Shown in pieces: positions 23,791 to 64,000 of a stretch of 64,000 bases of DNA; position 1 is the stretch's first letter, and the number at the start of each line of letters is the position of its first letter. The notes beneath the pieces are model-generated. The model worked only from the letters and a program-made list of their open reading frames with translations, did no database searches and was not told the origin of the DNA. The position numbers were made by a program, and so were the translations under genes. The DNA is from Phoronis australis (taxonomy: Eukaryota; Animalia; Phoronida): positions 750,948 through 814,947 of the forward strand of contig NMRA01000154.1 of assembly GCA_002633005.1 (NCBI GenBank), written 5' to 3'.

Positions 23791-24546
23791 ATGGTTCAGA
23801 CTATGGACTTCAACCTTAAGAGTGGTGAGCAGTTGCTGTTCACAAACTTCTCTAATGGCTGGATTATTGAGAAGTACTCCAACACTACAGCGCCCTGTGA
23901 AAGTTGGTTATTACTGCCTGGTGAAAACATGTGGTCTAGTGGTGTTCGATTCGTTCTCTATCTAATTGCCATGATCTATTTCTTTGTTGGTATCGCCATT
24001 GGCAGTGATATATTTATGTGTAGTATAGAAGTGATCACGAGCAAAAAGAGAACAATAGTTCGTTACGATGAGGAGCGACAAGAACCAGTAAAAAAAGAGG
24101 TCCTCATTTGGAACGAGACAGTTGCTAACTTGACACTAATGGCGCTGGGCTCAAGTGCACCAGAAATCCTCATCGCCGTCATTGAAGCTGCTAGGGAACT
24201 GCCGGCGCCATACATACCTCGTGACAGTCTGGGTGTATTTACCATTATTGGTAGTGCATCTTTTAATCTACTCATCATTACTGCCATCTGTATTGTGAGT
24301 GTGCCATCACCAGAAGTGAAGAAGATTCGGGAAGTGGGCGTGTTCATTCTGACCTCATTCTGGTCCATCTGGGCCTACGTCTGGGTTCTGCTCGTTGTCA
24401 CCGTCTTCACGCCAGGGGTTATAGACATCTGGGAGGCATGTGTTACACTTGCCTTCTTCCCTGTCCTTGTGCTCACTGCCTGGATGGTTGACAATGGCTT
24501 CTGGATTAAAAAGGCCAAAAAGGTTGATGTGCATGAAACCAATGAG
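23791..24546 (+). CDS. SLC8A: Na+/Ca2+ exchanger (NCX/SLC8), first coding exon: N-terminus, TM1-5, alpha-1 repeat
   Basis: Contains NCX hallmarks [58 protein letters not shown] and WSIWAYVW...[10 protein letters not shown]. Acceptor ttttttcag|G opens the exon at 23755; an in-frame TGA (23758) precedes the ATG (ttcaacATGg). Donor GAG|gtaagc at 24546/7, phase 0. Confidence 0.97.
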
Positions 24547-32319: not shown

Positions 32320-32530
32320 GAGCACTGTCCCTATTGGCCGCCAGCCCACTCCCCACCTGAAGATGCTTAGAGTTGAGCGCTGCTCCTGTGGCCACCAGCC
32401 CGCTCCCCACCTGAAGATGTTTAGAGTTGAGTACTGCCCCTGAGCCCGCTCCCATCTGAAGATGTTTAGAATTGAGCGCTGCCCCTATGGCCACCAGCCT
32501 GCTCCCCACCTGAAGATGTTTAGAGTTGAG
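32320..32530. repeat. 54-bp tandem repeat, ~4 units (one 45 bp)
   Basis: ctgaagatg.ttaga.ttgag recurs at 32357, 32411, 32456 and 32510. Confidence 0.85.
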
Positions 32531-34502
32531 TTACAAAACAAATACGGCATCATTTTGGCTGGTCTCAGCTGGATTTGCTGTTTTTGAAAACGGGAACAAC
32601 CGACTCGATTAAAAAAACAAAGCAGGTTAGAAACAACTGTACTTTGTTGACCTTACTTTAGTCTCTCAAGTAATGGCTGAAGATTGCTAACAGTGTAAAA
32701 GTGTCACCGACTCTTACCAGTTTAGACCCGAGATGGGCGCCTCATTGATCACTTTATGCTGTTAATCCGATCAGTATGAATAATAGACCACCATAAAGTG
32801 TCGTCGTGGGATTGATCACAGATTTTTTGACGTCAGTCAAAGCATTTCTTCATTGAAGCGGTTTCTGTTGAAGGGCTACAGCTGTCTGAGCCGGAATTTG
32901 CTCAATAATTAATTTCAGTCTTACACCAGGAAATCTTTGCAGATAATCAAGACATGCAAAGTAGGAAAAGTATGGCTGGTTAATGACTACTGCCCTTGAA
33001 TGTCTAGACATTTGAAAAAATGTTTCCATTTTGACCTGTTATTTGCCTCATGATGGTCGCACTATTTTTTGGAAAACAAATTTCAGCATCCAAAATTGAT
33101 TCATCTTTACTACTAGCGTTAAAGAAATATATTTGAATTTGCATGAAGAGATGTCACGTTTTCTAAAATGAGTTCATTTTTTTGCAACAAGTTTTAAAAG
33201 TATAAGATAGTATGCAGTAAATCTTCCACAGTTTTTTTGGTTGGGTGAAAGAAATTCATTAAATTTCCATGGTTTTGATCTCACAAAGTGATCATTTGTA
33301 GGGATAAGGTGGTATTTTATAGGTGATTTAATTGGAAAAGGGCACTATTTTCTTGCTCAGGAATTTTGTCCGAAAAGGCATCCTTAGTGAAACTGGTTGT
33401 GAAATCACTCTTCTGATCACTGAGCAGGATATCCTTCCGCTGCTTCTATGGTAGCACCACCCCCCCTCCCCCCGGGAGTTTATCCAACCAGCTAAAATAG
33501 TGCCGTTAACGTGTAGTTTGAAATCTCAAAAATATTTCAGGAATAAATACACTGGATTAATTCCCCCAACGGTCGGTCGTGTTCCTAAAGGATTCATGAA
33601 TACTGGCAAGTTGAGTAATCCCTATTGGTCGACTCTGACACCTACACACTTTGTATTAATCGAGCGAAATTTGTTAGAAATTTGTGCCTCAATGCAAAAA
33701 AATTCTCCTAGGAAAACTTGCTTGAAATATATATGGGCCTATTCTCACATGTTTTTACATGGGAATGGTATTTATGTTACAACACTGAAGTTAGTGGAAA
33801 TAGATATATAGTTGCAACACCACCACCTCAAAGGGATTTTAGAAGTCCATGAATAAAATTAATTTTCGCGGATCAAGTCTTTTATCATCAACTCCGTAAA
33901 AATTGCTAAAAATCTGTTCACTCAGTTAGGAACTCACAAATCTGTCAATTCACGACTAAATTCATTCAGTTTTTGTTCTCGTGAGATTTCCTACATCCAC
34001 CCTCATTTGTTTGCCATAGTACAGGAAATTTAACAGGTTTTTCTTTGAATACCTGCTGAAATTGGCTGTTGCCATGCAGAAAATTGTCATGCTTCAGGTA
34101 TCCACTAAGAGATAAAGGAAATTAATGTTCATAAGATGAACCAATTAGTGGTGCCCCTTGGCTAGCACTGATTAGCTAGGTATGATTATGAAATACTAGA
34201 ATATAAAGATTTTTAAATAACCTCTAGTGATCATTGGACATGTGCTCAATAATGTAATTTGTTTTATTTGCTAAACGCTGCGAAAGCAGATAAATTAACC
34301 ATTTGGGTATGTTTGTATATAATATTTTTGTATGCCCTCCTAAAAACATGTATTTCATTCAGCAGGCCTGATGTTGTTATCCACAGTCTACAGTTCTAAA
34401 GGAAATGGGAATATTCTCTAAGATGTTAACAAGTTCTGTCAAAAATTCTCCCTTTATCAACTACCGGTATAACAAATAGGAATAATCGGAAGAAAACTGT
34501 AA

Positions 34503-37500
34503 ATTACTAGTTGATCATTGGGCATATTGGAGTGTTGTAGCACCCTCTGTTGGCCTTTTTAGTTTTGACAAGATGTTGCTAATGTATTGTAGTTATTGCA
34601 AAATAATTTGACAGTTTTTGATAAAGAGGTGGGTACTGGATAGGAGGGTGTACTAACACCCTCGCACAGTATGATTATTTTTTGTGTTAAAGGTGTCTTG
34701 AGCGGCCTGCATCAGATTCTATGAATAAACAGCCGTCCAAAATGAAGTACCGGGGAATATTGTGTGTGTTGCAGACGTGGGCGCATTGCAAGGCCTTATT
34801 GCGTTCATATTGTCGTGGTCTTGAAGGTGGTGAATCTCATAGGTCGATGCACGTGGCAAATGTAAAATCCTTGACCACTCCGAGACAGTCAAGGCTTGAG
34901 CAGCCTCATACAAAACTTGAGAAACTCTGCCTGATAATTTTCCTAAATTAATTGGCTATCTCAGATGAATACAGAACTACCGCATGTCAGGGGTGATCTA
35001 TCTGTGAACCAATAGGTGATCTATCTGTGATCCAGTAGGTGATCTGTCTGTGTACCAATAGGTGATTAGTCTGTCAATCAATACCTGATGTGTCTGATAA
35101 TCAATTACTGATCTGTCTGACAATCCTTTGTGCTTGCCTCTGATTACATGTTACTGAGCATGTGTGGCTCATTGTGTATTCAATTATCGGAACCTTGGCC
35201 ACTTTGACCAGACATTGATAAATTACCAGTGATTATTGGAGGATTATCCTAGCTTCTTCTTGATGAAGATTAAAACTGAGTTTTGTTGACATTCCAGTGA
35301 TTCAATTTTAAACTATTCTAAGGCTTTTCATTTCTCCATTCAAGGATTCAAATTTATGGGAGGAAAATTGTAATCATGGCTTACTGTCGCCAACAAACTG
35401 GCTTGACCGAACAGCCAATTTCTGTATATAATTGATCAGTGTGCATCGTTAATGGAAAAGTGATTAGCCCCACTGCTCCATACATCAATTTGAAGTAAAT
35501 AATTTAGTATTGGGACAAAAACGAATCTAAAAGCCCTTTCATACTGACTTGTCTCCGGTCTGAGTGTAGTGTCAACGTAAACTGCGATGTTAACTAAACC
35601 ATTCATATTGTCTTTAGTAGCTAACTGACATCGAAGTGAATGGTAGGTGACGCTGTTGTTATTGAAGTAATCGGAAGGTAGCGCTGATGCATTGTGTGCT
35701 AAGATTTTTTGTAACGTGACAAGTTAGGAACATTTACATGTCCTAATTGACATAAAACTTATTTCTAATTCAGTTGGTGCCTATTCGAGCAAAATATAAG
35801 CAACTATTAGCGACGACACGTGCCCTTCAATTGTTGAAAATAAAGGTATTTTGAGGGGGACGCATATCCCATCGGTCGCTTTAATTGACAAAATGAAGGC
35901 TATATGTAAGAAATTTAAGTTATTTGTTTCGATCATTTTTTAATTCTAGGGAAATTTATTAAGGTCTTCTTGAAAAGGGGGAACGTGAAGTTAGTTTGTA
36001 AAATTGATACAAGGTTTCATTGAGGGACGGCTTTTCCAGTGGGTGCTGCTGAAAGTACACTGTTTAATTGTTATCCAAATGTTAAGCTTAGAATTTGGAA
36101 AATTTAGAAATTTTGGGGTTGCGCATTAATTATGGTGAGGTAAGGCTGCAAGACCACTGACAGCTGAAAGCTACAATGGCGGGGATACCTGCAATCTTAA
36201 CTGGTAGTTATTCTTGTGCGTACCTCATGGACTTTAAGTTTGTTCCGCAACAAGAGATCAGCTTTCGTTAAGACAGATCCAAGTAACCTATCGCAAGCTC
36301 CACCCCCTCCTTGCATAATGTCGACTAACAAACAATAACTTTTACCCGGCAACGTGTTGTTTGTCGGGTAAAATGGTGGCTTGGAAATAAAGGTGTGTCA
36401 AGAATGATGAGTTCTAAATGGTCAGTTAAGCCGTCACTCAAAATCCTGGTGATAGGTCAATTACAGCTATGCCCCTTTGTTGCGGTTTTGTCTTTGTATG
36501 TCTGCCTGCATGTGTACCTTCAAGTTTGTTGAAGAAACTTCACTAAATTTGCTCAATGTGCAGATAAAATTTGAATCTAATACTGAAAACAAAACTTAAT
36601 AAAGTTAGTGATGTTGCGTCCGTCTCTCACGGACNATTACTAGTTGATCATTGGGCATATTGGAGTGTTGTAGCACCCTCTGTTGGCCTTTTTAGTTTTG
36701 ACAAGATGTTGCTAATGCATTGTAGTTATTGCAAAATAATTTGACAGTTTTTGATAAAGAGGTGGGTACTGGATATTTTCAGCTAAATAATATTAAACAC
36801 CCTCGCACAGTATGATTATTTTTTGTGTTAAAGGGGCCCTGAGAGGCCTGCATCAGATTCTATGAATAAACAGACGTCTAAAATGAAGTACCGGGGTATA
36901 TTGTGTGTGTTGCAGACGTGGGCGCATTGCAAGGCCTTATTGCGTTCATATTGTCGTGGTCTTGAAGGTGGGGAATCTCATAGGTCGATGCACGTGGCAA
37001 ATGTAAAATCCTTGACCACTCCGAGACAGTTAGATCAAGGCTTGAGCAGCCTCATATAAAACTTGAGAAACTCTGCCTGATAATTTTCCTAAATTAATTG
37101 GCTATCTCAGATGAATACAGAACTACCGCATGTCAGGGGTGATCTATCTGTGAACCAATAGGTGATCTATCTGTGATCCAGTAGGTGGTCTATCTGTGAA
37201 CCAATAGGTGATCTATCTGTGTACCAATAGGTGATTAGTCTGTCAATCAATACCTGATGTGTCCGATAATCAATTACTGATCTGTCTGACAATCCTTTGT
37301 CCTTGCCTCTGATTACATGTTACTGAGCATGTGCGGTTCTTTGTGTATTTAATTATCCGAACCTTGGCCGCTTTGACCAGATATCGATAAATTACCAGTG
37401 ATTATTGGAGGATTATCCTAGGTTCTTCTTGATGAAGATTAAAACTTGACATTTCAGAGATTCAATTTTAAACTATTCTAAAGCTTGTGAAGATTAAAGA

Positions 37501-38290
37501 GGCTTTTCATTTCTCCATTCAAGGATTCAAATTTATGGGAGGAAAATTGTAATCATGGCTTACTTTCGCCAACAAACTGGCATGACCGAACAGCCAGTTT
37601 CTGTATATAATTGATCAGTGCGCATCATTAATGGAAAAGTGATTAGCCCCACTGCTCCATACATCAATTTGTAGTAAATAATTTAGTAATGGGACAAAAA
37701 CGAATCTAAAGGCCCTTTCATACTGACTTGTCCCCGGTCTGAGTGGAATGTCGACGTAAACTGCGATGTTAACTAAACCATTCATACTGGCTTTAGCAGC
37801 TAACGGACATCGAAGTAAATGATAGGTGACGCTGTTGTTATCGAAGTAATCGGAAGGTAGCGCTGATGCATTGTGTGCTAAGATTTTTTAATGTGACAAG
37901 TTAGGAACATTTACATGTCCTAATTGACATAAAACTTATTTCTAATTCAGTTGGTGCTTATTCGAGCAAAATATAAGCAACTATTAGCGACGACAGGTGC
38001 CCTTCAATTTGTGTTGTTTGTCGGGTAAAATGGCAGCTTGGATACAAAGGTGTGTCAAGAATGATGAGTTCTAAATGGTCAGTTAAGCCGTCACTCAAAA
38101 TCCTGGTGATAGGTCAATTACAGCTATGCCCCCTTGTTGCGGTTTTGTCTTTGTGTGTCTGCCTGCATGTGTACCTTCAAGTTTGTTGAAGAAACTTCAC
38201 TAAATTTGCTCAATGTGCAGATAAAATTGGAATCTAATACTGGAAACAAAACTTAATAAAGTTAGTGATGTTGCGTCCGTCTCTCACGGA
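34503..38290. other. Diverged tandem duplication across single N (36635), likely two haplotypes
   Basis: 34503-36634 vs 36636-38290: scattered SNPs, a VNTR unit difference and ~520 bp missing from copy 2. Confidence 0.8.
34992..35125. repeat. 23-bp minisatellite (ggtgatctatctgtgaaccaata), decaying 3'
   Basis: Direct reading. The duplicated copy at ~37138-37295 has one extra unit. Confidence 0.8.
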
Positions 38291-38845: not shown

Positions 38846-38955
38846 GCCATGCCTCATGTGAAGATAATTAACCAGGATCACCATGGCAGTGTGGTTCATC
38901 ATCCTCATGGAAGGGAGCTGATCGCACTGGAGAATGAGAAGAAACTCAAGCACAG
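38846..38955 (+). CDS. SLC8A: NCX coding exon 2 (start of cytosolic loop: AMPHVKIINQDHHGSVVHHPHGRELIALENEKKLKH)
   Basis: ggtttcag| acceptor, CAG|gtaaat donor, 110 nt, phase 0->2, open in the frame set by the previous exon. Confidence 0.8.
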
Positions 38956-43249: not shown

Positions 43250-44024
43250 ATTATAAACCTTTGTTGTTGTAATAAGCTTAGCTTTGGGTGATGTGGGACT
43301 AATTCTGTTGTTGTCTTTCTACAAACTCTACTTGTATAAGTATAATGTATTTGGTCTCTATTCTTGTCTGCCTTTATACCTTTCTCAATAAAATCTAATC
43401 AATTCATGTTCAAATCATCTTTGATGATGCTTTTCAAACCTATTGGACACATCCTGTACCATTATATACAGTCAGTAACTGCTGATGGTGGAGGACTCCC
43501 TGGTTAACTGTTATCTGCTCAAAATCTTGTTTTAACAAATCGTCTTTGATCAACCAGTGCCTCTAAAGTGTTAAATACCACCAGTTCGTACTTCCAACAC
43601 CCTTAGTCCTGTTCAAACACAGCTTACCCTGGAACANATTGTAAATCTTTGTTGTTGTAATAAGCTTAGCTTTGGGTGATGTGGGACTAATTCTGTTGTT
43701 GTCTTTCTACAAACTCTACTTGTATAAGTATGATGTATTTGGTCTCTATTCTTGTCTGCCTTTATACCTTTCTCAATAAAATCTAATCAATTCATGTTCA
43801 AATCATCTTTGATGATGCTTTTCAAACCTATTGGACACATCCTGTACCATTATATACAGTCAGTAACTGCTGATGGTGGAGGACTCCCTGGTTAACTGTT
43901 ATCTGCTCAAAATCTTGTTTTAACAAATCGTCTTTGATCAACCAGTGCCTCTAAAGTGTTAAATACCACCAGTTCGTACTTCCAACACCCTTAGTCCTGT
44001 TCAAACACAGCTTACCCTGGAACA
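43250..44024. other. 387-bp duplication across single N (43637), likely assembly overlap
   Basis: 43250-43636 ~ 43638-44024, about three substitutions. Confidence 0.8.
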
Positions 44025-47963: not shown

Positions 47964-48059
47964 TGGTCAGAATAATTCTGGGTCCACCACACGCCTTGTT
48001 ACAGCCGTCGACAAAGAGGATATGACTCACGACCAACAGAGGTCATTTGCTAGAGCCAG
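47964..48059 (+). CDS. SLC8A: NCX linker exon (GQNNSGSTTRLVTAVDKEDMTHDQQRSFARA-R)
   Basis: tgtttcttgtag| acceptor, CAG|gtaacg donor, 96 nt, phase 2->2. Joins the next exon to give SFARARFRHAA, loosely comparable to the NCX1 KSRAFYRIQA helix. Confidence 0.8.
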
Positions 48060-51011
48060 GTAACGTAATTCAACGTGATGTAATAGAAGTCTGATTTTCT
48101 GCAGGCTTATAGTTATTCTGTCGCGTGGCGTAGAAGTGTAAATGGGATGCCATAGATAACAACATCAAAATCTGTTGTAAATTTTCTTTATTTGAAAGAA
48201 AATTTCTTCTTGCCTATGGTTCTAGCTGACATTTGACTATCAATAAATTTAACATTGTTGTAAACATATGTTTCATCAGCAAAAATAGCCTTCTGTGCAA
48301 GTGATTTTCATTCAAAAACAAACTAACATTGATAAACAATGAATTGTTAAAAGCCCCATTCAGCACCTGTTTTTTGTTCTTCACTGACCGTCACAGGTCA
48401 TTGCGTGAACAAGGATTCCCCTGATGGCCACTGGTCACTGCTTCTGGACTGAAACGGTGTGCCTTCAAACTGTTAGGAGACTATGATTAATATAGGATTT
48501 TGCTATTAAATTTCTGTTCACCATTTTCATATCGAAGATAGGGTTAATGATGTGTTACACAGTGTCCATTGCGTTTTCTACTATTGCTATTTTTTATTGC
48601 TATTTCAAAAATCATGAAGTCATTTCCTTTTCTTAGGTTGCAAAAATTGCCAACTGCTTTGATATTTGTAGTAGAATTCCAGCAGTTAACAATTTTGATG
48701 AACTTTCTAATGTCTAGCAGTCTTGAGAAATGTAAATTGCTTAGGGATATTCTAAGTGCTGGTAGAATTTTGATTCAAAGATGATTGGAACGTGCACGGC
48801 CTCTGTGTTTTTCGGTGAAATTAGCTAAAATGTTTTTAGATTAAACTGATTCATGTTGAAGCTACTTCCGTCACAAAAGCAACCTCTCACTTTCGCCATT
48901 GTTACCGTTATCAAATTGGAACTTGGATCGAATTGGAAGTTCAGAATTGGAGACCAGAGGCCTGTTTCAGGAAAAGTGACTGGAATTAAAAATGGACTCC
49001 ACTTAAATTTTTCTTAGAAATAATTAAATTTTACTTAAGCAAAAGTGCAAAGTTTCTGAGAATATACATAACTGCTAGTTACTGCCGATATAATTTTTAA
49101 AAATTGTTTCTTGACTGTGATGCAGTCACACTTACTTGGTTAAACCTTTTTCCAGCAATTCTGAAGAATGAGTGAAAGGCCAAATTTCTATCTTAAGTCA
49201 TGAAATGGACTTCAGGCCTTACATGTTGGCCAATATCACGGCCGGTCAGTTGATCACAAGTAACAACGAACTGCTGGTTGTTTTCAAGCCCAAGTATTTT
49301 GTGCGAGCAAGGAACCATTTTTGGTCAAAATCAAAAGTTAAATCTTTTAATGATTGAACACCAGTTTATTCCCGTTTTAAGGATACTCTTTCCTCTGTTC
49401 TCTCATGTTTACTAAAGAGCAGCACGAATCTCACCCATTAGACAACAAAATAAAAGCACATTTTGTGAATTACAGCTGTGTAAGCATTACATTTCTATTC
49501 ACATGAAGTATGAAACTCAACGCCTTTCATTTATGCTTGCTATTGTTTTGGTGTATCACCATTAATTACAAAAGTAAACTGTTTACTTTTTGAAAGAACT
49601 GTGCAAAAAGTTCATTTTTATTGAATAAGTTTTGACTAAATTTGTTTGTCTTGGACTTCGTTTCGTGGGGTCTTAAACTAAAATGAAGTGGGAATAGTGT
49701 CATTCAATAATTAAAATAAACATTATTATGAACCACTGTGAATAGATTTGTGGTGTTTCTTAGAAATGCAATTTTTGTACATTTGACATGTATGGTGTCC
49801 TAATTGTATACCCTTGTTTTTCCCCATCGTAATATTTAACCAACTAATTCATTGGTAAGATGCGAGTACAGATTTGTTTTGTGTGTCTTGATTTTTTGAA
49901 AATATATTTTATGTTATGTTTTGGCAAGTTTTTATGATTTTGCGAACTCACTATGTTTGGCTTGTATATCATGAGAGATAACTGTCGTCTTATGCCCAAC
50001 AACTATAAGAAAGTTTGTTTTTCATGAGAGGTAGTAATGTCTTCATGGCCAGCAATAATAAGAAAATTTGTACATCATGAGAGGTAACTGTTGTCTTCAT
50101 GCCCGGCAATAATAAAAAATTCTAAAAACGTTTTTGTGGTAAAGATTCTTCTCAAGTGCTTAAAAAGTCTCAACTAAGTCTCCTTACTTTGCTAACGTGT
50201 AGCATGTACTGAATGACAATGCTATATGAACACCATCTCCACTTGTATTTATTTATTGACAACTTGTAAATGTGAAAACAAAAAATTCTGCAAATAGATG
50301 ACCTTTTCACTTATGATGAACCTTGGGGTTTCACATAGCCCGCATCATGCTGTGTTATTCCCCAACACCACATTACGATACTTACTAGACACCGTTGAGT
50401 GATTTACAGCGGATCATTTTCAACACAAAACTTGTTCTTAAAACTATTTGGTAATTTGTATCGCATTTAATATACTTATCATCGTCAATTGTTGCGTTTC
50501 TATCGAATTTGACCAAGCAATCACAGAGACTTAAGTTAGACTTAAATTGAAACTGAGTGCAATGTTCAAATAAACACCAAAGAGTTGTTTACCGAGAGTT
50601 GCGCAGTCCAAAAGTGCTGGGAATTATGGGGGAAGCTTGGTTTTATTATTATTGAAGCATTTTCCAGCCTATAAAACTTCTTTTTTTTTCTGAATGAGCA
50701 TTTTATTTTTATCGATTCACTGAATAAAAAAGTGTCTCTCGACTACTAATACGAAGAACCTCCTCAGTGTGTTGTGTGATTCAAGTAACATTTGTGTGCT
50801 AAGATTTACACTATGTGGGTGAATGTTGACCTGCTTCCTTTCCATCCGTCATGACGTCCTCAGCCTTGTGAACTCCTGCAGGATCTTCTTGACGTTCGGT
50901 AGTTGTGGTGCTCATTTATTCACTAGTCTTTTCAAAGATTGCTGAAGTAGTTTTGGTCAAGTGTTTCATATATCAGCGTTTAGAAGTTTATGCCTGAGCA
51001 TAGGTAAAAGT

Positions 51012-51735
51012 TGTCCCTTACATATAGGGGTAGAGGGGTGTAACATGTATTGGTAGAGGGGTATCACTTACGTGTATTGGTAGAGGGTGTCCCTTACATG
51101 TATTGGTGGAGGGGTGTCCGTTACGTGTATTGTTAGAGGGGTATCCCTTACGTGTATTGGTAGAAGGTGTCACATATATTGGTAGAAGGTGTCCCTTACT
51201 TGTATTGATAGAGGGTGTCCCTCACATGTATTGGTTTGGGGTGTCCCTCACATGTATGGTAGATGGGTGTCCCTTAATGCATTGGTAGAGGGATATCCCT
51301 TACGTGTATTGGTTGAGGGGTATCCCTTACGTGTATTGGTAGAGGGGTGTCCCTTACGTTACGTGTATTGGTAGAGAGGTGTCCGTTACGTGTATTGGTA
51401 GAGGGTTGTCCCTTACATTATTGATAGAGGGGTGGCCCTTACACATGTATTGATAGAGGGTGTCCCATATGTGTATTGGTAGAGGGGTGTCCATTACGTG
51501 TATTGGTAGAGGGGTGTCCCTTACATGTATTGATAGAGGGGTGTCCCTTACATGTATTGATAGAGGGTGCCCCTTATGTGTATTGGTAGAGGGGTGTCCA
51601 TTACGTGTATTGGTAGAGGGGCGTCCCTTACATGTATTGGTAGAGGGGCGTCCCTTACGTGTATTAGTGGAAAGGTGTCCCTTACATAATTTTGTTGATG
51701 GAGAAGTGTCCCTTACGTACATTGGTAGAGGGGTT
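51012..51735. repeat. 26-27-bp minisatellite (tgtcccttacgtgtattggtagagggg), roughly 27 units
   Basis: Direct reading. It generates the spurious repetitive ORFs (VLVEGCPLR). Confidence 0.95.
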
Positions 51736-52255
51736 TACCTAGCATGTAAAGGGTTTCTTTACTGGCACGTGTCTGAAACTGCATGGTTTTATGCCCTTTG
51801 TCTATTTTTAGAATACTTTAATCACATGGATTATTTCATTGTAATATTTAGGGCTTGGTTTGTTAACTTTTCTAAAGAATATTAACCACTGAGGAACAAC
51901 CGTAGTACGTCTACTGATGATTTTTGTATATTAGACACCGAACTTCCATGACTGTGCAGCTATGTCTCCATCTGTGAGATCTTTGTGAATTATGACAATT
52001 GTATTCCTTTGAATGTGTGAACATATCAAAGCTTCTTTTTGACATATCTGATTACTGCTGTGCCTTGTGGTGACGATTTTATTTTTTACCTCTGTCTCTG
52101 CATTTTGGAGTTCCATTTGGGATTTTCATAAAATTTGGCTTAAATAGGCTTGACTCCATTAGGGAGATGAAATTTTCTCATTTTCAGATGGCTTCAATAT
52201 ATTCTGTGCCCCTAGTTCAGATCTACACGATATCCTCTCAAATTAGCAAAATCCA

Positions 52256-53593: not shown

Positions 53594-53599
53594 ACTCAG
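53594..53599 (+). CDS. Candidate 6-nt microexon (ACTCAG, adds LR)
   Basis: CTAAC near 53544, U-rich tract 53552-53570, TGC motifs, aacag| acceptor, CAG|gtacaa donor. Phase 2->2 within a phase-2 intron. Six nt cannot be proven from genomic DNA. Confidence 0.3.
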
Positions 53600-54982
53600 G
53601 TACAAGCTACACTCTGCTTGTTGTATGGTGTGATGTTATTATAACTACAGAGGTCGCCACAGTAGCACAGCATGATGCCTGTGGCACGTCTGCAACAGAA
53701 ACTTGACTGAGAAACTGCCAACTGTCAATTTTGAAACAGCAGTTTACTGATTAGCTGTTCTAAAGCACTTGAAATGCAGTTTGAAAGTTTGTTTTATCTA
53801 TGGTCATAAATCCAGTGGTAGCTAAGTGGGTCTTGGGCAGTGTGCTTTTCAGAGCAGCAAAAATGTTGCAACTACATAAAGTTGATAATTTATTTTATTA
53901 ACGACTAACTTCAAAAGCCCCGATACTGAACTGTTCGCAAATTGATATCGAAGTTGTGACTGTCTTAGCTCAAGCCCTGACTTGTGACCTTGCGATAAAA
54001 CAGGCCCACGATGAAATTTGTAAAATTTAAAATTTAATAAGAGTCAAGTTTGAGTTGCATTTCCTCCAGCATGCTATGTGCTTTTCACTTCCACTAAACA
54101 CTTTGTATTGTTTTATTGGAGATCACTTGGACGAATGCTATTTAAGTTAAATGTATTGGTGTTTGGACGAATTAAGAAGTCCTTACGTTACTACTGTAAA
54201 TCTAATCCTTGTCATGCTACCTGAATTCCTCAGTTGTCACCTCCTTAATGTCTTGCTAATACTTTTGAATGAAATGATACTTTTCTGTTGTGCAGAAATG
54301 ACTGCCCTTTTGTCTACAGTACTTAATGTGTTACCCAGTCCGTAAACCAATTAAAACAATAGTGTTCCTGAAGATAGATTTCATTTTGCTTCAACGATTT
54401 CCATTCAAAATCTGTTTCTAATGTTGAAGACACCAAAGTTTGGCAGTTGATTGGGTTATATGTGGCTGTATACAATTTGGATTGTTTTCTCTGAAATTTC
54501 TTGTTCTTACTGTTTTCCCTCTGTTGGCGTCTGTTGTCTCTGTCTCAGTAATTAACTAAAACATACTAATTGTGCCCAAGGCATGTGGGATGGAGATCTA
54601 ATAGCTTAACAAATTAATGTTTTGCGAAAATGATGATATGTGTGTAAAATTTTCATGAGATAATTACAATTTGGACTAGTAAATTCTTAGAATCATTAAA
54701 TTGGTGATTTAAATTTTTTACTTCCCCATAGTTGTCGTTCCCTAGTCCATTAATGCAACATGTTTTGCCCTATGTGACCTGGTGTTGTGTCATGCCATAC
54801 CTTATGACAAAACCCTTCCCATATGACAAATCCCTTCCCATAATTCACCGTCTGTGCATTTAGATACTCGCACATTTTTTGCACATTTTGCCACCACAGA
54901 GTTACTCGACTTAGATTTTGTGAGGCAATCTTCAAATAAATATCACTGATCTGTTGATGTAAGCTCTTTTTCTCTCTTGTAG

Positions 54983-55116
54983 ATTCCGCCATGCTGCCAT
55001 CAATTCCATTCTTGGTCACAAAAAGTCTCACTCCAGGCCTATAACACCCAAACCCAAAATGGTTGGCATAGTGGACCAAGTTCGTGCCAACTCACAGTTG
55101 AATCAGATGAATGAAG
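54983..55116 (+). CDS. SLC8A: NCX linker exon (R-FRHAAINSILGHKKSHSRPITPKPKMVGIVDQVRANSQLNQMNE)
   Basis: ctctttttctctcttgtag| acceptor, AAG|gtaaag donor, 134 nt, phase 2->1, open frame. Not in the ORF track. Confidence 0.85.
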
Positions 55117-56030
55117 GTAAAGAATTGTACTTCAAATGAATTAATGACAGTGTTTCATTTTTATGTGCCTATGTAAACATGTACATATCATATGGGCGTC
55201 GAGTGTTTGCTGCTATATCTCCTAAGCCGCTAGCACGATCTTTATGAGATTTGGGGGATGTGTTTCTGTGAAGCTGACGACAGATACGACGACAAGTTTT
55301 GGACAGATCCAGTCACTGCTGTACTCCTTAGAAGTAATTCTCTTTTTACCATTTGCGTCTGTATTTTTGGGGTTGCTTGTCGGATTTTCATAAAATTTCA
55401 TAAACAAGTATGGGGGAGTTGGCTAGCTCTTCCCACCTGCAAACGGGTTTGACAAATTTTGTAGTACCTAATGCGTATCACCACCATAGGAAGCATACTG
55501 TTTGCGATGCAGTCGTCAGTGGCGGATTTTGAGGGGGGCCAAGTGGGCTATGCTCCCCTAAAATTCTCCGAGATTCCATTTGGCAGTTCGGGGGTGCCAT
55601 TGTCTGACGGGCAACATCCCGGCAAACACTTGGCCCTGACCCCCACCCAAAATCTGGATCCATTACTGGTCGTTGGAACATTTCAGTGCTTTGTATTCTT
55701 GTTAAATATCTGGTGATTTAACTGAACGAGTGCAAATGTCAAACTTTTTTTTGACAAAACACTTGGACAATTTATGTAAACTTTAAATATATCAGCAAAT
55801 CTATGCAGTATGACAAATACTGTACTGGAAAATTACAAAATTTAATTCTATAGGGTATTACAATTTTGGGCTTGATACTCAATCTGTCTACGACTGTCAA
55901 GACTAAGTCCTTGGCTTATTCTAGTCTTCTAGTCAACACTACAATGCAGCTCCGTATTCAGTTGGATCTAACTATCCAAGTTAAAGTCCAGTGGGTACTG
56001 TGACATTTTGTGTTATATTGTTCATTACAG

Positions 56031-56130
56031 AGGATATGTGCGGCAAGTTTACCTTTGCTGCACCAAGCTATTCTGTTCTGGAGAGTGCTGGCACGCTGGA
56101 AGTGGATGTGTTGTTTCACCGCAAGAAAAT
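56031..56130 (+). CDS. SLC8A: NCX CBD1 (Calx-beta) strands A-B ([33 protein letters not shown])
   Basis: ttgttcattacag| acceptor, AAT|gtgagt donor, 100 nt, phase 1->2. Typical Calx-beta start F.F...Y.V.E..G. Confidence 0.92.
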
Positions 56131-56557
56131 GTGAGTGTTTATAAGTGATCTTAGAGCTCGCGAGGGCTCCTAAAAATTCAGTGTTACCGTGATTTGGTAC
56201 TCAAAGTGTATCTCTGCTGTCTTAGTTGTTGTGGACATTTTTATTCCGCTGTGGTTTTCTCAGTGGATAATGTTCCCACTGTAGTGGTGGTCGTCAGCTC
56301 AGTTTTTGTAATCGATGTAGGATTCGTGCTAGTTTTGAATGGTACCTCATAAGCTTTTCAGTTATCCTTTCAGAATTGTATAATATTATGTTGTATGCTG
56401 AACCTATTTGAGTCAAATTTCTTCTGACCTATCTAACGTCTTCACGGCACTGAACAAGAAAATCTATAATGTGTGAGATGAAATTATCAATAAAAAAACA
56501 AACGAAATGTTGACTTTTGCATGTGGAAATCAATTTGTTTTAAATTTTGTTTTTCAG

Positions 56558-56582
56558 ATCCAAGTCCACTTTAAAAGTTGCT
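56558..56582 (+). CDS. SLC8A: NCX 25-nt frame-restoring microexon (I-SKSTLKVA)
   Basis: ttttgtttttcag| acceptor, GCT|gtgagt donor. Converts phase 2 to phase 0, exactly as the flanking exons require. Confidence 0.8.
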
Positions 56583-57161
56583 GTGAGTAGTCTTTAAGTT
56601 CTAATTGTTGAAAAGACAAGTAATTTTCTCTAGTTTAGAATACCGTAGTTGCACTGGCTAAAAAATACTCGATTGAGACACTGTATATATGTTGCTGCTC
56701 TTGAACGATTTTTTTAATTCAAATTTTTACTTCCAATGTTTTACAGCTTGATGAACCCAGGATTAAGTAATTGTGTTCAGACCAACTAAATCCGGTTAAT
56801 ATACGTTTTTCACAGTTACTACCCTTATTTAATTTATAACCGACAGTCACAAAACTGTTAAAACCCAAGTTCCTGGTTATAGCATCCTTTGTTATGTGGA
56901 GAGCATTAATTATTGCTTTTGCATTTCTGCTTAATATACTGTTGAGTTCAGGTTATAACGTTACAAGTGCTTTCTAAACCCCCTCACAGAGGTGTAGAAC
57001 GGAGTGTTGTAACCCTTCGGTGGTATGGGACATTTGTAAAAAACAAAATTTTTAGTCTCCTAAAACAACAGTACATTACTGTGTCCTGTGGTATGGAGTT
57101 AAGGTATGCTCGGGGTAACAATAGAAGTTATTTTACCCCCAAGTTATTTTCCTTTTCTCAG

Positions 57162-57341
57162 AATGGTGGAACTGCCATTGCCAACAACAACACTGACGAA
57201 AAGGAAACCACTCTAACAGAAGTTACACCTATGGACAGGGAACTGGAAGACATTATCACAGGAGTTGTCTCAGTTGATTTTGAGACACGCGAAGGAACTG
57301 CTAAGATGGACAAAGATTTCAAATTTGCTCAAGGAAAACTG
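57162..57341 (+). CDS. SLC8A: NCX CBD1 insertion plus strands C-D (...ITGVVSVDFETREGTAKMDKDFKFAQGKL)
   Basis: ttttccttttctcag| acceptor, CTG|gtaagc donor, 180 nt, phase 0->0. Calx-beta motif V.VDF.T..GTA....DF....G.L. Confidence 0.92.
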
Positions 57342-57714
57342 GTAAGCTCCGTTTCAATTCCAGTGAAACTTATATTGTGCAATAATTTATCATATTATTT
57401 TGGAAATTAATCATTCAACCCGAATGCATTGTCAAGTTCAAATTTGAATATATCAATTTAACTGCAATCATTTTAAAATTATCTGATATCATTTTTGGCT
57501 TTAGTAATGGACTTACCCAGAGTATGAAAATGATATCTTTATACTAAACATGGAACCTGAGAGATCAGTGAAATGCCTTATTAGCTGGACACTCAGGTCT
57601 CAGTTGTGCAATGCTCCAAACTATATTTCATGAATTTAACTTCCAGAAAACAGCTGAGAAACCTGCATGTTAGGCAACCCGACGCAATGTTTTGCAGGAT
57701 GATGCTTTCATTCT

Positions 57715-58875
57715 TATGTGCCACCTCCCCCCCAGGCTTTATATTGCCGTCATAAGCTCTGTTTGGGCATCTGGTGTAGGCTGTTGTATCTCCTAAATTC
57801 CTTGCCCGATTTTCATGAGATTCAGTAGAGTCGACGTGTTCCTTTGAAGCTAACTGCAGATGAGTTTCGGACTGAACCGATTGCTGCTGTTACCCCTTAG
57901 TAGCAGATTTGGTTTTTTAACTTTGCTTCTGTTTCTACCAAGTTCCTTGACAGCTTTTTTCAAAAAATGGCAAACAGGTTTCTACTGAAACACCAGCAGC
58001 TTTCGAATGCATTTGACGATTTTCAACCCCTGTCGGTCATCTTAATTTATTTTTAGTCTGCTTCTCTATTTGCCAAATCCCTTGAAGGCCATGATTGGGA
58101 AGTTTGGAAGATATATTCTTATTGAGGAGAGCACTTCTGACATTGATTTTTCGACAGGTATTGCTACTGTGGTGTCCCCTAGTGGCAATTTTTCTTTTTG
58201 CCTTGTTTTAGTAGTGCCTCAGTATCTACTAAGTTTGTTGATGGACCCGAGTATTGTGCTGTTTCCTTGTGGAAATTATGATTTTCTTTACATCTGCCTC
58301 AGTATTTACCAACTTCCTTCTATGGAACTTGGTGTAATAGAGCATATGTGCTCCTACACTCCTTATTCTGAAAATTGTATCTCGTATAATGGTTCCAGAT
58401 TTTAGTTAATATATGTCTTATACAAGGATGGTAGTATGTTCCCATTTTTGGATGGATATAAAGTATTCTGTGCTCCTTGTGACCAATTTTTTATTACTTT
58501 TACCTGCTTCTGTGGCATTTGCTTCTATATAGTCGCCAAAGTGCTTGAAGGATCATTTTGAAAATTGACGGGTTTGTTCCTAGTGAGAAGACTGACTTTG
58601 ATATTCAGATGGTTCTATCTATTGTGGCACTCTGTAGGTGCATGTATTTCATCCGCGGCTATATTTCCTTTATCCTTTGTGGGATGTCTGTGGCAAGTGT
58701 TTCCCAGGAATGTGAGAACAACTTTACTTTTGGACATATCTGTGCCCCCTAGTGGCAGTTTAATTTTTTACCACGGCCTGTTTTATTTGACAGATTTTCA
58801 GGAATTACAGAGACAACAACACCTTTTAAACTGTGGAGAGATTTGATTATTCTGTGCCACCTAGTGGCCATTTTT
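57715..58875 (+). repeat. Degenerate subrepeat-rich repeat family (ttcatgaaatttgg / gcc.cctagtggc)
   Basis: The same subrepeats occur at ~22680-23200, ~55190-55440, ~62770-63900 and reversed at ~1037-1370. Confidence 0.6.
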
Positions 58876-59458
58876 AGATTTGTGCATCAATTACCTAAAA
58901 AACCACTGAGTCACTGATCTGTCTTTTCAATCATGCTGTCCTTATCCATTAATTCCCATCACTTACCTATCATCCTGTCATTACCCATTATCAAATTACC
59001 TAACAAACTCTTACTAGATATAAATTTCACGATTCTCTTGTGTTTGAAGGCTGTTGTTTTTTGCCATCTTATGATGTTAGAGAGTGTGAGATTTTTTATG
59101 TAAATTTGTAATTTTACTTACAGTTAAGTAACTATGTAAGTAAAAGTATGCATAACCTTTAAAATTTCGGTGAGATTAGATGTTACTTAACTTCCATTTT
59201 CCTTCTGAATAATGTGATTTTGAAGAGATTCATTTGAGACTCATTTTAGATGTAAAATATTTTTCTTGTCACGTACACCGCTTTAAGGCAAATGTCTTGA
59301 AGAGCCGGTCAAATGCTGTTAAAAGACGTCAAGTAAATGCAACTATTTTTGTTGAATCTCGTACTCTCTTCTACTCATTAAGAGATCCTGTAGTATGTCA
59401 TTTAATTGTTGTGTTTCTATGGGTGAGTTTGATGACCAGAGAGATTCCACTGTTTTAG

Positions 59459-59621
59459 ATTTTCCACGAGGAAGAATTCTGTAAAACCATCTCCATACCC
59501 ATAGTGGCTGATCACCAGTGGGAGGGAGACAATGAGTTTTACGTTATTTTGAAAAACCCACAAGGTGACTCGGGCCTTGGGGACCCCAGTGTTACACGCG
59601 TCCTGATTATTGATGATGACG
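59459..59621 (+). CDS. SLC8A: NCX CBD1 strands E-G, mutually exclusive exon 'A' (IFHEEEFCKTISIPIVADHQWEGDNEFYVILKNPQGDSGLGDPSVTRVLIIDDD)
   Basis: ctgttttag| acceptor, ACG|gtaggt donor, 163 nt, phase 0->1. Calx-beta C-terminal half ending in IIDDD. Confidence 0.92.
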
Positions 59622-59893
59622 GTAGGTGCAGACATGGTTTGAAAAGATCGCTTGATCGGCTTGGGTATGAGCAACTTCAAATTTAGCAAGCCAAGTGATT
59701 TTTATCAAAATAACTTTTTAGCTGCCGTAGTTGTGTTGAGCACCAATTGGTGCATTATACTGGCAGTGAGACTTGTAAAACAGATGGACAGAAATTTTAT
59801 TTTTTTTTTAAGTTGCTCAGGCTTGCTGATTAAGTGACTTGTTTGTTATGAGTTTGTGTGTGTTTTCAAAGATACCACATTTGTTCATTTTAG

Positions 59894-60056
59894 GTATTTG
59901 CAGAGCACGAGTATAGGAAGACAATTTCGGTTCCGATTATCAACGATTTGAATTTCCATAATAATGTTGAGTTCTACGTTATATTAAAAAATCCCGATGG
60001 GGACGCGGGTATTGGCGACCCAAGCATCACCCGTTGCACAATAGTTGATGATGATG
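59894..60056 (+). CDS. SLC8A: NCX CBD1 strands E-G, mutually exclusive exon 'B' (VFAEHEYRKTISVPIINDLNFHNNVEFYVILKNPDGDAGIGDPSITRCTIVDDD)
   Basis: ttgttcattttag| acceptor, ATG|gtaaga donor. Same length (163 nt) and phases as exon A, 32/54 aa identical by manual alignment. Confidence 0.92.
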
Positions 60057-62769
60057 GTAAGATAGTCCCCAGTTTTGCACTCCTCTATCCAACTTTTCGC
60101 TGTTTTGCCTGTGTGTTTCACCTCTATGCCTTCCCGGGAGTTTCTCTTCACTGTTTTAAATGATTCAGCCCGTGCCTTTGCATACACTGAGCTTTAAATG
60201 CACTCTCCAGGTGTCACTCCTCAGCAATGGTCATAAGATAATCCAATGATTTGGACTTTTGTTACTAATACATAATGTCCGTTTTCTCTCCTCTATGCTT
60301 AGTTCTAAGGAGTGACCCAGGGATACCCACTGTAATTTCGCTCACACACAGTTAACCCAAGGGAGTTGACCTCAAACAATATAACTTTTACTGTTGCTGT
60401 GTTGTATCTCACATATTAAAATACAGAAAGCTGCTCATCTTATATATGTTTGTATGTGAGATTGCCAAATTCTGTTTCCATGGAGTGTCAAATGTATTTA
60501 TAAGGTGTTTATTTTTGCCACATTTTACTTTGGGAAAATGAAAAATGTGGACTACGCTTAATCAAATCTAACTTGAACAGATCTCTGTAAAAATTGTATC
60601 ATCAATCACATTTGACAAACTTATATACTCGTAAGACGCGTTTTGCGTGACTACCTCGGTCTTTACTGAATTCTGTCCCTTCGCACTAGTTGCTTCATCC
60701 TAATGTATGCTCCTCAAGCCAATGAGCTGCGAAAATAGTCACTGGAGAACATCTTCACTTAGTGAAGGTCACATTTTATTGAGCGATGAAACTAACAAGG
60801 TGATGTCACACTGCTGTTATTCCGTTTTGCAACATTCTTGCTGTCTCCACTGCAAGCCTATCTGACTGCCATGCATCATGGGTCCTGGGCATCTAACTGG
60901 ACGCCCTAGCACTAATCTGGACACTCTGGCAAGGACGCCCAATGTATCATTTGGACGCCCACTGTCAATAGGAACCTTTCAAGTTTGGACTAGCACATTG
61001 TAATGAATATTAGGAAGCCTCTGAAGGCTCAAAGTGGGGGCTCTTTTTTCAAAGCAGGAAGAAATATACAATGTATATACAAAGTATATATATTGTTGCT
61101 TTGCTCACACTTGGTAGATAGCATTGTAAAAGTCTTGGTCTACAGTTTTTTTTTAGTAAAAGTGCTCACTAGAGAAGGCTGTTTGTAAACTTAAATGTAA
61201 AAACCATGGTCTTTGCATTTTTTAAAAAAATCTGTGTGTTTAGGGGGATTACTTGGGGTGGGGGGTTACGCGTCGGAATCATGGATGCCCTGCAATATTG
61301 GGAACCCCATTTTGGACACCCTATTTTCGAAATCCTGGATAAAGGCCTGCTGACAGCACCACAATAGCTTAGGCTTTTGCTGGTGTTAGAAGGTAGAATG
61401 CAGTTGAATTTACACAAAAATAAAATTAATGTAAGGTCTGTAACTCAGCATAGTGGAACTCGGCCAATAAAACTATCTCAACACACACAAGTGTGAGACC
61501 CTCAGCAGAGACTAGCTGTATACAACAATGTGATGATAGACAGCACACTTTTGGAGAGCTTAGTTTGATTTCAGAATGAAGCTCATCCTTAGCAATCCTT
61601 TGGCAAAGTAATTTCTGTATCCTCATTTAACACACTCCCTTCCACACAGTGCAATGTCCTACACATACCTTGCTTTCATTTCCTTTCTTTTAGTCACGCT
61701 CTCAAAACTCAAGGGTAATAATCCTTTCTGTAGTTATTGAGTACATAGTATGTGCTTTTAAGACCTAGTAGTCATTGGTATAGTCTTGGTGTTACATGTG
61801 ACAGGGACGGATATGATTAGTTTAAGGATGGGGGCGTCACTAATATCTCTATGGTGCATCCTGTCATTATCATCTGTGTGAAATGATCCCTCAGAGTCAA
61901 CTATGTGGAGTATCCCCCGTCGTCATCTACTCTCAACCAGGCTATTTCAGTTACTGAGTTTAGTTTAAGAATATGCAACTGCATAAGGCCAAAAAGCATA
62001 AGTGATTCTGGTATTTTTTCTTGCTCGTTAATAATTTTAAAACTAAGGAAAATGCACCTGAGGTTAAACCAAAATGACGAGGGATTTTTGTTAATTTTGC
62101 CCATTGTTTTGTACATCATGGTCTTCAAAACATGGCTTGTTCTTGCTGACTGGCTTTTGTGCATCTTTTTAAAAAAGCACAAGACCAGTAGGCTGACATT
62201 GATGGGGCAAGCATTTTTTTCTTAGTCGATGAGTACTGGTCTCAAAGTGAGTCGGATTAACGACCAGAACCAACCAATGCTTTTTTGGCCTAAAATCAGA
62301 TATGGTTGTGGGTGTATTGAGTTAATCCGTCCCTGTTCACTTTGCTATATAGTTGTATCTGGGTTACCATAGTAACTTTTAGAAAGCATTGCTATTCAAT
62401 TCTAGATGTATATAGCTGAAACTCGCTAAGCATTGATGTGTAGAGTTTGATTAGAATACATTTTAGCACTTGCTTGTTAGATTTTATTGAATGATGTGTT
62501 GTGATGAAGGCGTAATTAGTTATTTTAACTAAAATGTTATTGGTTTGATGTGTAGATGACACCAGCTTGCAAGTTTTAGTAAAATGGACAAGACATAGAT
62601 CTGTCATTATCTTGCAAAAATTGCTACATGTAAACAACGCACTTACTGTGCATTTTTAATTATAATTAATGTTTTAGTCTCATTTTCTTAAATAACACCA
62701 GTGGGATCATATGTTAGATTCTGTTGACTCTAAACTGATTCTGCATTTCAATACATTTTTCAGATACAC

Positions 62770-63900
62770 TTTTATGCGCCTACGATATATGGCGTCATCC
62801 CCATCCATCCGTCCATAAGGCGTCCACTTCTGTATCTTCAATACCCCTTCATGGATTTTGTGAAATTTTGCAGACATGCTTGTGTCATGAATGAGACAAC
62901 ACAAATGAATTGTTTTGACAGATCTGACCACCGCTGTTCCTCCTAATGGCCATTTCATTTTTTTATGTTTGTCTCAGTCTGTAAATTAAAGATCTTTCCT
63001 TGACGAATTTCCATCTGTGACGGATTCAACATAGCACCACTTAGTGGCCATTTTACTGTGGCACCCCGTAGTGGCTGTTTTTGCTAAGACCCCTGCAAGA
63101 TATTTGTTAAATTTGGCAAGTGTATTTCTATGAACGGGACAATGGATAACGGCAACTTTCGGACATAATTGCAGCAACAGTTGTACTTCATCCCTGGTGG
63201 TAATTTTAGTTTTTCACTGTCTTTTGTATATTCAAAATTCCTTGATTAATTTTCATGAAATTTGGCAATAAGTTTACTTTTTTGGATGAATTTGCGCAAA
63301 TAGTGTGCCACCTACTAGCCATTTTTATTATTTTTTTCAAATTTCATTTTGGTGTCTGCCTTCTATCTCCAAACCACTAAGAATTGATAATGAAAATTTA
63401 TTTGGTAATTGTGTTTCTTCTGGAAAGTTCCTGGCAAAACATGATGTTTGGACAGACTTACTGATGTGGTGCCCTCTATTGACAATTTTGTTGTTTTTGC
63501 CTCAGTGGTTCCATATCTACCATGTACCTCAATAGATAGTCTTGAAATTTATACGTGGTTTTATTGAGGAGAATATAAGTGATGCGAATTTTGTGTCAAA
63601 TTTAACTACTGTGGAATCTCCTACAGGCAATGTTTGTCTTTGCGTTTGCCTGAATATCAAGTTCTATGATGCATGTTCATGAAATTTGGCTAATAAGTTA
63701 CTATCATGAACACATCACAAACCCTGTTGCAGACGGATTTGACCTACATTGCCCCCCTACCGGCCTTTTTATTGTTTTTTGTCTGTTCTTTGTTGTCCTC
63801 CCCATAATCTTCCAAACTTTGTGGAGAATCGTGATGAAAATTGACAAGTGTGTTCCTATTAAGGAAAGCATTGCTGACTTCTTTTGCACCCTATAGGGGT
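62770..63900 (+). repeat. Same subrepeat-rich repeat family downstream of exon B
   Basis: Repeated tttcatgaaatttggc and gc.cc.c.tagtggc motifs. Confidence 0.6.
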
Positions 63901-64000
63901 TATTGTTTTAAACTTACTAGCATTGTTCCTTCCGGTGGGAATGTTTAAAATAGTAACTATCCCTTGTATCTGCTCTGTGTGCGATGCAAGCAGTGGGTAC

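Follow-up and report, generated by a model that had tools for sequence, protein, structure and literature searches.

The Phoronis australis DNA analyzed here (a stretch of 64,000 nucleotides, hereafter the window) contains a gene of the Na+/Ca2+ exchanger (NCX) type in which one exon, encoding part of the Calx-beta domain CBD1, is present in two adjoining versions, A and B. These exons are an old tandem duplicate, and each copy is held intact by selection. As judged from the sequences, the explanation that we favor, with somewhat better than even confidence, is that the two copies are used in a mutually exclusive manner and yield isoforms that would differ in their regulation by cytosolic Ca2+. 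In the proposed scheme, the donor at 57341 would be joined either to A or to B, and the chosen exon to a single phase-1 exon further downstream, outside the window. Since 163 nt is not a multiple of three, products with both exons or with neither would be frameshifted and would be removed by nonsense-mediated decay.

Structure and divergence of the exon pair

Exon A (59459-59621, plus strand) and its second copy, exon B (59894-60056, plus strand), are both 163 nt long, and the 3' end of each encodes the equivalents of the three aspartates Asp 498-500. Both are preceded by TTTTAG, and the donors are G/GTAGGT in A and G/GTAAGA in B; the intron between them (59622-59893, plus strand) is 272 nt long, with a candidate branch point approximately 68 nt 5' of B. 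The coordinates, lengths and splice sites of the pair given in the initial annotation were all reproduced, as was its prediction that double inclusion breaks the frame: joining A to B shifts the frame and leads to a TAG at 59914-59916.

The two copies share 32 of 54 amino acids and 95 of 163 nucleotides. Synonymous sites are saturated (pS 0.90, with pN 0.29); third codon positions are alike in 15 of 54 codons, only 1 of 11 fourfold sites is identical, and 22 of the 32 residues identical between A and B are encoded by different codons. Neutral simulations (20000, each with these 68 nucleotide changes) gave a mean identity of 16 of 54 residues and a maximum of 27. As none reached 32, the likeness of A and B is not due to chance and neither copy is dead, and the earlier claim of an old duplication with purifying selection on both copies was upheld. 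A and B are thus adjoining homologous exons of equal length and phase, both intact and both under purifying selection, and the introns that flank them showed no similarity past the splice tract.

Comparison with the family revealed that both copies are ordinary members of it. The Pfam Calx-beta model was matched at positions 64-119 of 119 (34.9 bits for A and 27.5 bits for B, with a curated cut-off of 27), and a profile of 39 orthologous segments gave 101 bits for A and 105 bits for B, within the range of 67.5-117 bits found for the orthologues by leave-one-out scoring. The conserved residue is retained in A at 26 and in B at 24 of the 28 columns conserved to 80% or more, and at 15-28 of them in the orthologues. 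At the 22 sites where A and B differ, the family residue is found in A at 8, in B at 6 and in neither at 8, so neither copy is simply ancestral. We consider it unlikely that one copy, after long being functional, is a recently retired duplicate that is now silent or nearly so. The departures from highly conserved columns (4 of 28 in B and 2 of 28 in A), the weak acceptors and the lack of reads on A or B in sparse RNA runs would fit such a retirement, but both copies are free of stops, indels and broken splice sites despite the synonymous saturation, and both score within the orthologue range.

Gene model in the window

Seven exons upstream of the pair, all on the plus strand, join to A or to B in a stop-free model of 521 amino acids that ends in phase 1, and all internal splice sites of the model are AG/GT. 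The first coding exon (23791-24546), with a putative start ATG, encodes the N-terminal transmembrane half and the alpha-1 repeat; it matched Pfam Na_Ca_ex with an E value of 1e-21, is 56-68% identical to animal NCX-like proteins and has the donor GAG/GTAAGC. It is followed by three cytosolic-loop exons: 38846-38955, which is in frame with AG/GT sites and has tblastn similarity to Lingula, Lineus and Owenia; 47964-48059, which ends in a conserved FARAR motif and has AG/GT sites that keep the frame in the model; and 54983-55116, which starts with a conserved RFRHAA helix and was placed by tblastn and the model. CBD1 begins with the exon for strands A-B (56031-56130), which contains the E385 equivalent, is common to both isoforms, showed 65-88% identity by tblastn and had low read depth in RNA runs X1-X3. 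A micro-exon of 25 nt (56558-56582) encodes an insertion between strands B and C; it is required for the frame, resembles a stretch of the Lineus orthologue, and has bin depths that, by arithmetic on the bins, fit about 3 reads in run X1 and 2 in run X3. The exon for strands C-D (57162-57341) contains the D421 equivalent and has a weak match to Pfam Calx-beta positions 35-63; its donor at 57341 is in phase 0 and would feed A or B, and an identical boundary is present in the metagenomic locus L003. A downstream phase-1 exon was not found within the window, which ends at base 64000, and Rfam gave 0 matches in 54000-64000.

Some further features of the window were observed. A candidate micro-exon of 6 nt (53594-53599; AG/GT, with a T-rich tract and TGC upstream) lies between exons 47964-48059 and 54983-55116 and would add two residues; Haliotis and Saccoglossus isoforms differ there by two, and other species have short alternative inserts at this position. 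An open stretch at 48638-48720 faintly resembles an alternative Haliotis loop exon, with an acceptor phase mismatched to the upstream exon, and the resemblance is probably due to chance. Tandem repeat arrays were found in introns at 51000-51750 and 32343-32531. Interspersed repeats with a CCCTAGTGGC-like core are present at 57780-58880, 55296-55600, 60890-61350 and 62930-63960, and these CCCTAGTGGC-like-core repeats draw many RNA reads from other parts of the transcriptome. Direct duplications that are 92-99% identical were also seen at 34503-38290, 43250-44024 and 576-1831, at the N positions 36635, 43637 and 1036, respectively; they are probable intronic assembly overlaps of haplotypes.

Near-identical duplications at assembly gaps elsewhere in the window raise the thought that A and B are themselves an assembly artefact of two haplotypes, and the A-B intron offers 11 AG/GT combinations that would, on paper, restore the frame and so permit co-inclusion of A and B with a small additional exon. 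We hold both to be highly improbable. A and B are only 58% identical, their flanks are unrelated and no gap lies nearby, all of which speaks against an artefact. The Calx-beta fold is a seven-stranded sandwich, which cannot take two sets of strands E-F-G, and this speaks against co-inclusion.

Assignment of the exon pair to CBD1

The initial annotation had placed the pair in strands E-G of CBD1 and not in CBD2, and this assignment was confirmed by a sequence alignment and a predicted structure, which agree. The Lingula orthologue aligned the A/B segment to CBD1 of human NCX1, through the Asp triplet and into the linker. The AlphaFold model of the orthologue from the bryozoan Watersipora (mean pLDDT of 79) contains two beta-sandwiches, the first of which takes its final three strands from the A/B segment, and the best solved match to this predicted structure was human NCX1 (E value of 3e-45).

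Placement of the gene in the NCX family

Matches to the first coding exon were found in molluscs, brachiopods, annelids, nemerteans, echinoderms, hemichordates, amphioxus, tunicates, cnidarians and Trichoplax, and no vertebrate or arthropod names were present among the 120 matches listed. In a quick tree of 39 rows, for which 25 of 81 full-length representatives were retained, the window gene fell into an animal clade of 17 rows that includes sponge and ctenophore members (SH-aLRT of 100), and the canonical NCX clade, with ray NCX and mite NCX, was separate (SH-aLRT of 100). In two trees, the window gene was sister to Watersipora, with a support of 96 in one and of 99 in the 39-row tree. Both branches are fairly long, so a position with or near bryozoans is likely rather than certain. 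The description of the gene as an invertebrate Na+/Ca2+ exchanger holds in that the gene is of the NCX type, but it does not group with vertebrate and arthropod NCX (the canonical NCX1-4/CALX) in the quick tree. This separation makes it a member of a second ancient animal NCX paralogue, orthologous neither to vertebrate NCX1-3 nor to fly CALX.

The Na_Ca_ex domain of the window gene has its alpha-1 ion-binding motifs, ALGSSAPE and GSAxFN, intact as in canonical NCX. The alpha-2 repeat is intact in 14 of 14 clade orthologues listed, the second membrane half of the window gene lying outside the window, and Na+/Ca2+ exchange activity of the paralogue may be inferred from these motifs. The Calx-beta domain occurs twice in tandem, with a short Gly linker between the copies; CBD1 was seen in the window, and the evidence for CBD2 comes from orthologues and the predicted Watersipora structure. 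The two features of the canonical group that we looked for, a basic XIP segment after TM5 and a fully acidic CBD1 EF loop, were both lacking: no RRLL-type XIP segment was found in the window or in the clade rows listed, and positions 446-455 of the EF loop contain 4 acidic residues in A, 2 in B and 7 in NCX1. As a general observation, this second NCX clade extends over animals as far apart as sponges, ctenophores, amphioxus and tunicates; an XIP-like segment is lacking in it, and its CBD2 is not acidic.

Proposed splicing of A and B

Four RNA runs (three raw runs, of each of which 18-19% was read, and one contig set) were examined over 54700-64000, with animal reads being subject to filtering. 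A few reads fell on the exons of 56031-57341, with the strand expected for a plus-strand transcript. The gene was barely covered, with few fragments per run; at this coverage, the three bins that cover A and B had zero depth in 4 of 4 runs, and no exon joints were listed in these sparse runs. Slight intronic depth was seen at 57499-57809 in run X1. The presence of reads upstream with none on A or B, together with this intronic depth, could mean that transcripts end in the intron after 57341. It could also mean that a longer array starts with A and B, or that most transcripts use a third copy beyond base 64000, with A and B as minor forms; the next constitutive exon is outside the window. Truncated isoforms of related genes have been annotated, or cloned (available text of PMC6209159). 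We rate this group of explanations as improbable. A sensitive profile search revealed no third copy in 54001-64000, and with few fragments per run, dips in depth in animal genes are no finding.

The donors of A and B each match 7 of 9 consensus positions, with 6-8 of 9 for the other donors of the gene, and their acceptor pyrimidine tracts (0.50 and 0.59) are weaker than those of most other acceptors of the gene (0.50-0.82). Because the A-B intron is 272 nt long and has an ordinary branch candidate, a steric block between the two exons would not be expected. Mutually exclusive exons of the Dscam type originate by tandem duplication and are controlled by competing RNA structures. The Phoronis pair resembles them in being a tandem duplicate of equal length and phase, but, unlike them, it showed no shared docking/selector pairing above shuffles in the two regions tested (12 of 20 and 9 of 12 shuffles were as good), and repeat and duplex searches found no docking site. 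We also observed an 18-nt inverted repeat (57361-57378/60376-60393; 89% complementary, AT-rich and 1 of 129 such pairs) that would loop out A and B together. From the sequence features of the pair, we regard mutually exclusive use of A and B as probable, and the likeliest means of enforcement would be weak competing acceptors combined with decay of the frameshifted forms.

EF-loop ligand residues and predicted Ca2+ sensing

Residue numbers of NCX1 were placed by counting along the aligned human NCX1 sequence. According to the available text of PMC3386913, the NCX1 ligands are E385, D447, I449, E451, D498 and D500 for Ca3 and E385, D446, D447, D499 and D500 for Ca4, and F450 is the core of the interface between CBD1 and CBD2. 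E451 contacts three ions, and the regulatory sites are Ca3-Ca4 (available text of PMC9820601). In the Phoronis gene, the shared exons retain the equivalents of E385 and D421, and both A and B retain those of D447 and D498-500. The EF loop of exon A has Ala 446, Asp 447, Trp 450 and Glu 451, and that of exon B has Asn 446, Asp 447, Phe 450, His 451 and Asn 453. The A form is thus predicted to have a weaker Ca4 site, with Ala at 446, and would retain the full set of Ca3 ligands. The B form would keep the family Asn 446 and is predicted to have weaker Ca3 and low-affinity sites, with His in place of Glu451, a ligand of Ca1-Ca3; this change would be expected to lower the affinity of B for Ca2+ or the number of its sites.

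The differences between A and B are concentrated in this loop, with 9 of 11 EF-loop positions differing compared with 13 of 43 elsewhere (Fisher p of 0.004, for a region chosen after looking). Among 240 orthologue pairs that have diverged to a similar degree, only 5 had at least 9 EF-loop differences, and in 4 of these one partner is a sea cucumber that lacks Glu451. Across 47 orthologue rows, the common states are Asn at 446 (36 rows), Asp at 447 (39), Glu at 451 (32) and Asp at 453 (34), and the R532 tether equivalent is present in 45 of the 47 and the G503 equivalent in most. The acidic cluster of canonical CBD2 was absent in 23 of 23 orthologues whose CBD2 EF loop was caught by the pattern among these 47 rows. 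With CBD2 lacking an acidic loop, CBD1 would be the only Ca2+ sensor of the paralogue and the only site for retuning by an exon swap. The CBD1 of this clade is, however, also poorer in acidic ligands, and the label of primary sensor, as used in the initial annotation, is thus an extrapolation from NCX1.

Given mutual exclusion, we think it likely that A and B differ in actual Ca2+ sensing. With a smaller but appreciable probability, the exons are mutually exclusive and the swap has no effect on sensing, because CBD1 of this clade binds Ca2+ poorly or not at all; the copies would then be distinguished by their stability, by how the domains pack or by the partners that they bind, or would be kept by tissue-split expression. 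Such an outcome would agree with the family state of Asn 446 in 36 of 47 rows and Glu 454 in only 2 of 47, and with the change at the interface position 450 from Trp in A to Phe in B. It would also agree with the constitutive absence of Glu451 in 15 of 47 rows, which makes this residue dispensable in the clade and which extends to corals, sea cucumbers, octopus, tunicates and Trichoplax. Against it are the retained E385, D421, D447 and D498-500 equivalents, the G503/R532 tether equivalents of most orthologues, and a concentration of differences in the ligand loop that exceeds that of 235 of 240 orthologue pairs.

In addition, independent losses of CBD1 ligands were seen across the family (proteins P0056, P0193, P0196, P0105, P0202, P0055 and P0085). 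Glu451 is lost in sea cucumbers, octopus-type sequences and corals; the octopus has also lost the Asp triplet, and Glu385 is replaced by Lys in corals. This recurrence in the sequences suggests that Ca2+ regulation may have been lost repeatedly within the second NCX clade.

Origin of the duplication

A metagenome scan returned 36 loci, of which three (L001-L003) are animal orthologues of the A/B exon that are 65-67% identical to A and close to Watersipora. Locus L003 spans the region from the upstream exon through the CBD2 exon and contains one copy only, with the same 163-nt boundaries; no second copy was found downstream in L002 or within 1.6 kb upstream in L001. A and B (32 of 54 residues alike) are as distant from each other as either is from the exons of L001-L003 (32-36), which, together with the single copy in L003, indicates that the duplication is old yet lineage-restricted; alternatively, the second copy was lost in these relatives. 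No gene with two versions of the segment was found in the isoform sets among the 120 matches listed and the listed members of 30 clusters, although annotation can miss such exons. The single copy in L003 and these isoform sets agree with the lineage-restricted origin stated in the initial annotation.

In single-exon fragments of other animals, the end coincides with that of the A/B exon, so the exon boundaries are ancient. A protein search with a profile of A and B returned 3 short and 24 long proteins; identity to B did not exceed 65% in any of them, and none came from the organism of the window. The searches made revealed no second species that has both copies. A tree built from the 54 exon columns was equivocal as to a sister relationship of A and B (p-AU of 0.75). 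Small allelic differences in the segment were seen among oysters. Two Babylonia sequences are located on different contigs. A sea-cucumber loop resembling that of B is constitutive in isoforms X1 and X2, and, as the tree keeps the window gene apart from echinoderms, the resemblance was taken as convergence.

Comparison with known exchangers

Vertebrate NCX exons A and B originated by duplication, and their use is mutually exclusive (available text of PMC2408596). They encode strands E-F of CBD2 (available text of PMC4746289), and the available text of PMC5430519 states that NCX splicing occurs at CBD2 only, in agreement with the statement of the initial annotation that the vertebrate exons lie in CBD2. 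The Phoronis pair is similar to those of NCX1 and NCX3 (SLC8A1 and SLC8A3) in being a homologous duplicate pair (PMC2408596, in the part available) whose product includes strands E-F of a Calx-beta domain together with the EF loop that carries the ligands (PMC4746289, likewise), and in that the swap alters acidic ligands. In contrast, the vertebrate exons encode 35 residues of CBD2 in the canonical clade, whereas the Phoronis exons, known here from the genome, encode 54 residues of CBD1, with strand G and the three aspartates among them, in another clade. The two pairs are not homologous and stem from separate events, and the Phoronis pair is likely a convergent counterpart of the vertebrate CBD2 exons.

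In Drosophila CALX, CBD2 binds no Ca2+, and the splice forms CALX1.1 and CALX1.2 differ in their Ca2+ response (available text of PMC9820601). CALX is thus also an invertebrate exchanger with splice forms and a CBD2 that does not bind Ca2+. However, CALX1.1 and CALX1.2 differ by a five-residue change in the CBD2 FG loop (same source), with no duplicated exon and unchanged CBD1 ligands, and CALX belongs to the canonical clade.

Coral NCXB has been described as a more distant NCX-like group of unclear function (available text of PMC6209159), and low-identity NCX-like genes have been noted in sea urchin and Ciona (available text of PMC2408596); from these descriptions, they probably belong to the second clade. 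The available text of PMC2408596 regards such genes as lineage-specific duplicates that likely lack exchange function, whereas our quick tree unites sponge, ctenophore, placozoan, cnidarian and bilaterian members, with the alpha repeats intact. No description of a duplicated CBD1 exon was found in the literature searched, which included few subscription papers.

In a more far-reaching reading, to which we give less than even probability, a second ancient animal Na+/Ca2+ exchanger family, one that does not figure in work on vertebrates and insects, may have re-invented the NCX switch on the same EF loop of the other domain in one lophotrochozoan lineage. Its only Ca2+ sensor would then be toggled between a Ca2+-responsive and a nearly Ca2+-blind state, the two forms being natural E451/D446 mutants.

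Implications

Among genes for ion channels and transporters, mutually exclusive exons that arose by duplication are a common feature. The A/B pair described here comes from one genome so far. If its CBD1 is swappable, the primary sensor of an exchanger would be retunable by splicing, against the reviews that hold CBD1 to be invariant and CBD2 alone to be tuned. If true, the pair would also exemplify, in a clean form, how exon duplications can converge on one and the same structural loop, and would offer two natural variants for probing the roles of the Ca3 and Ca4 sites. More broadly, it points to a nearly unstudied pan-animal NCX paralogue.
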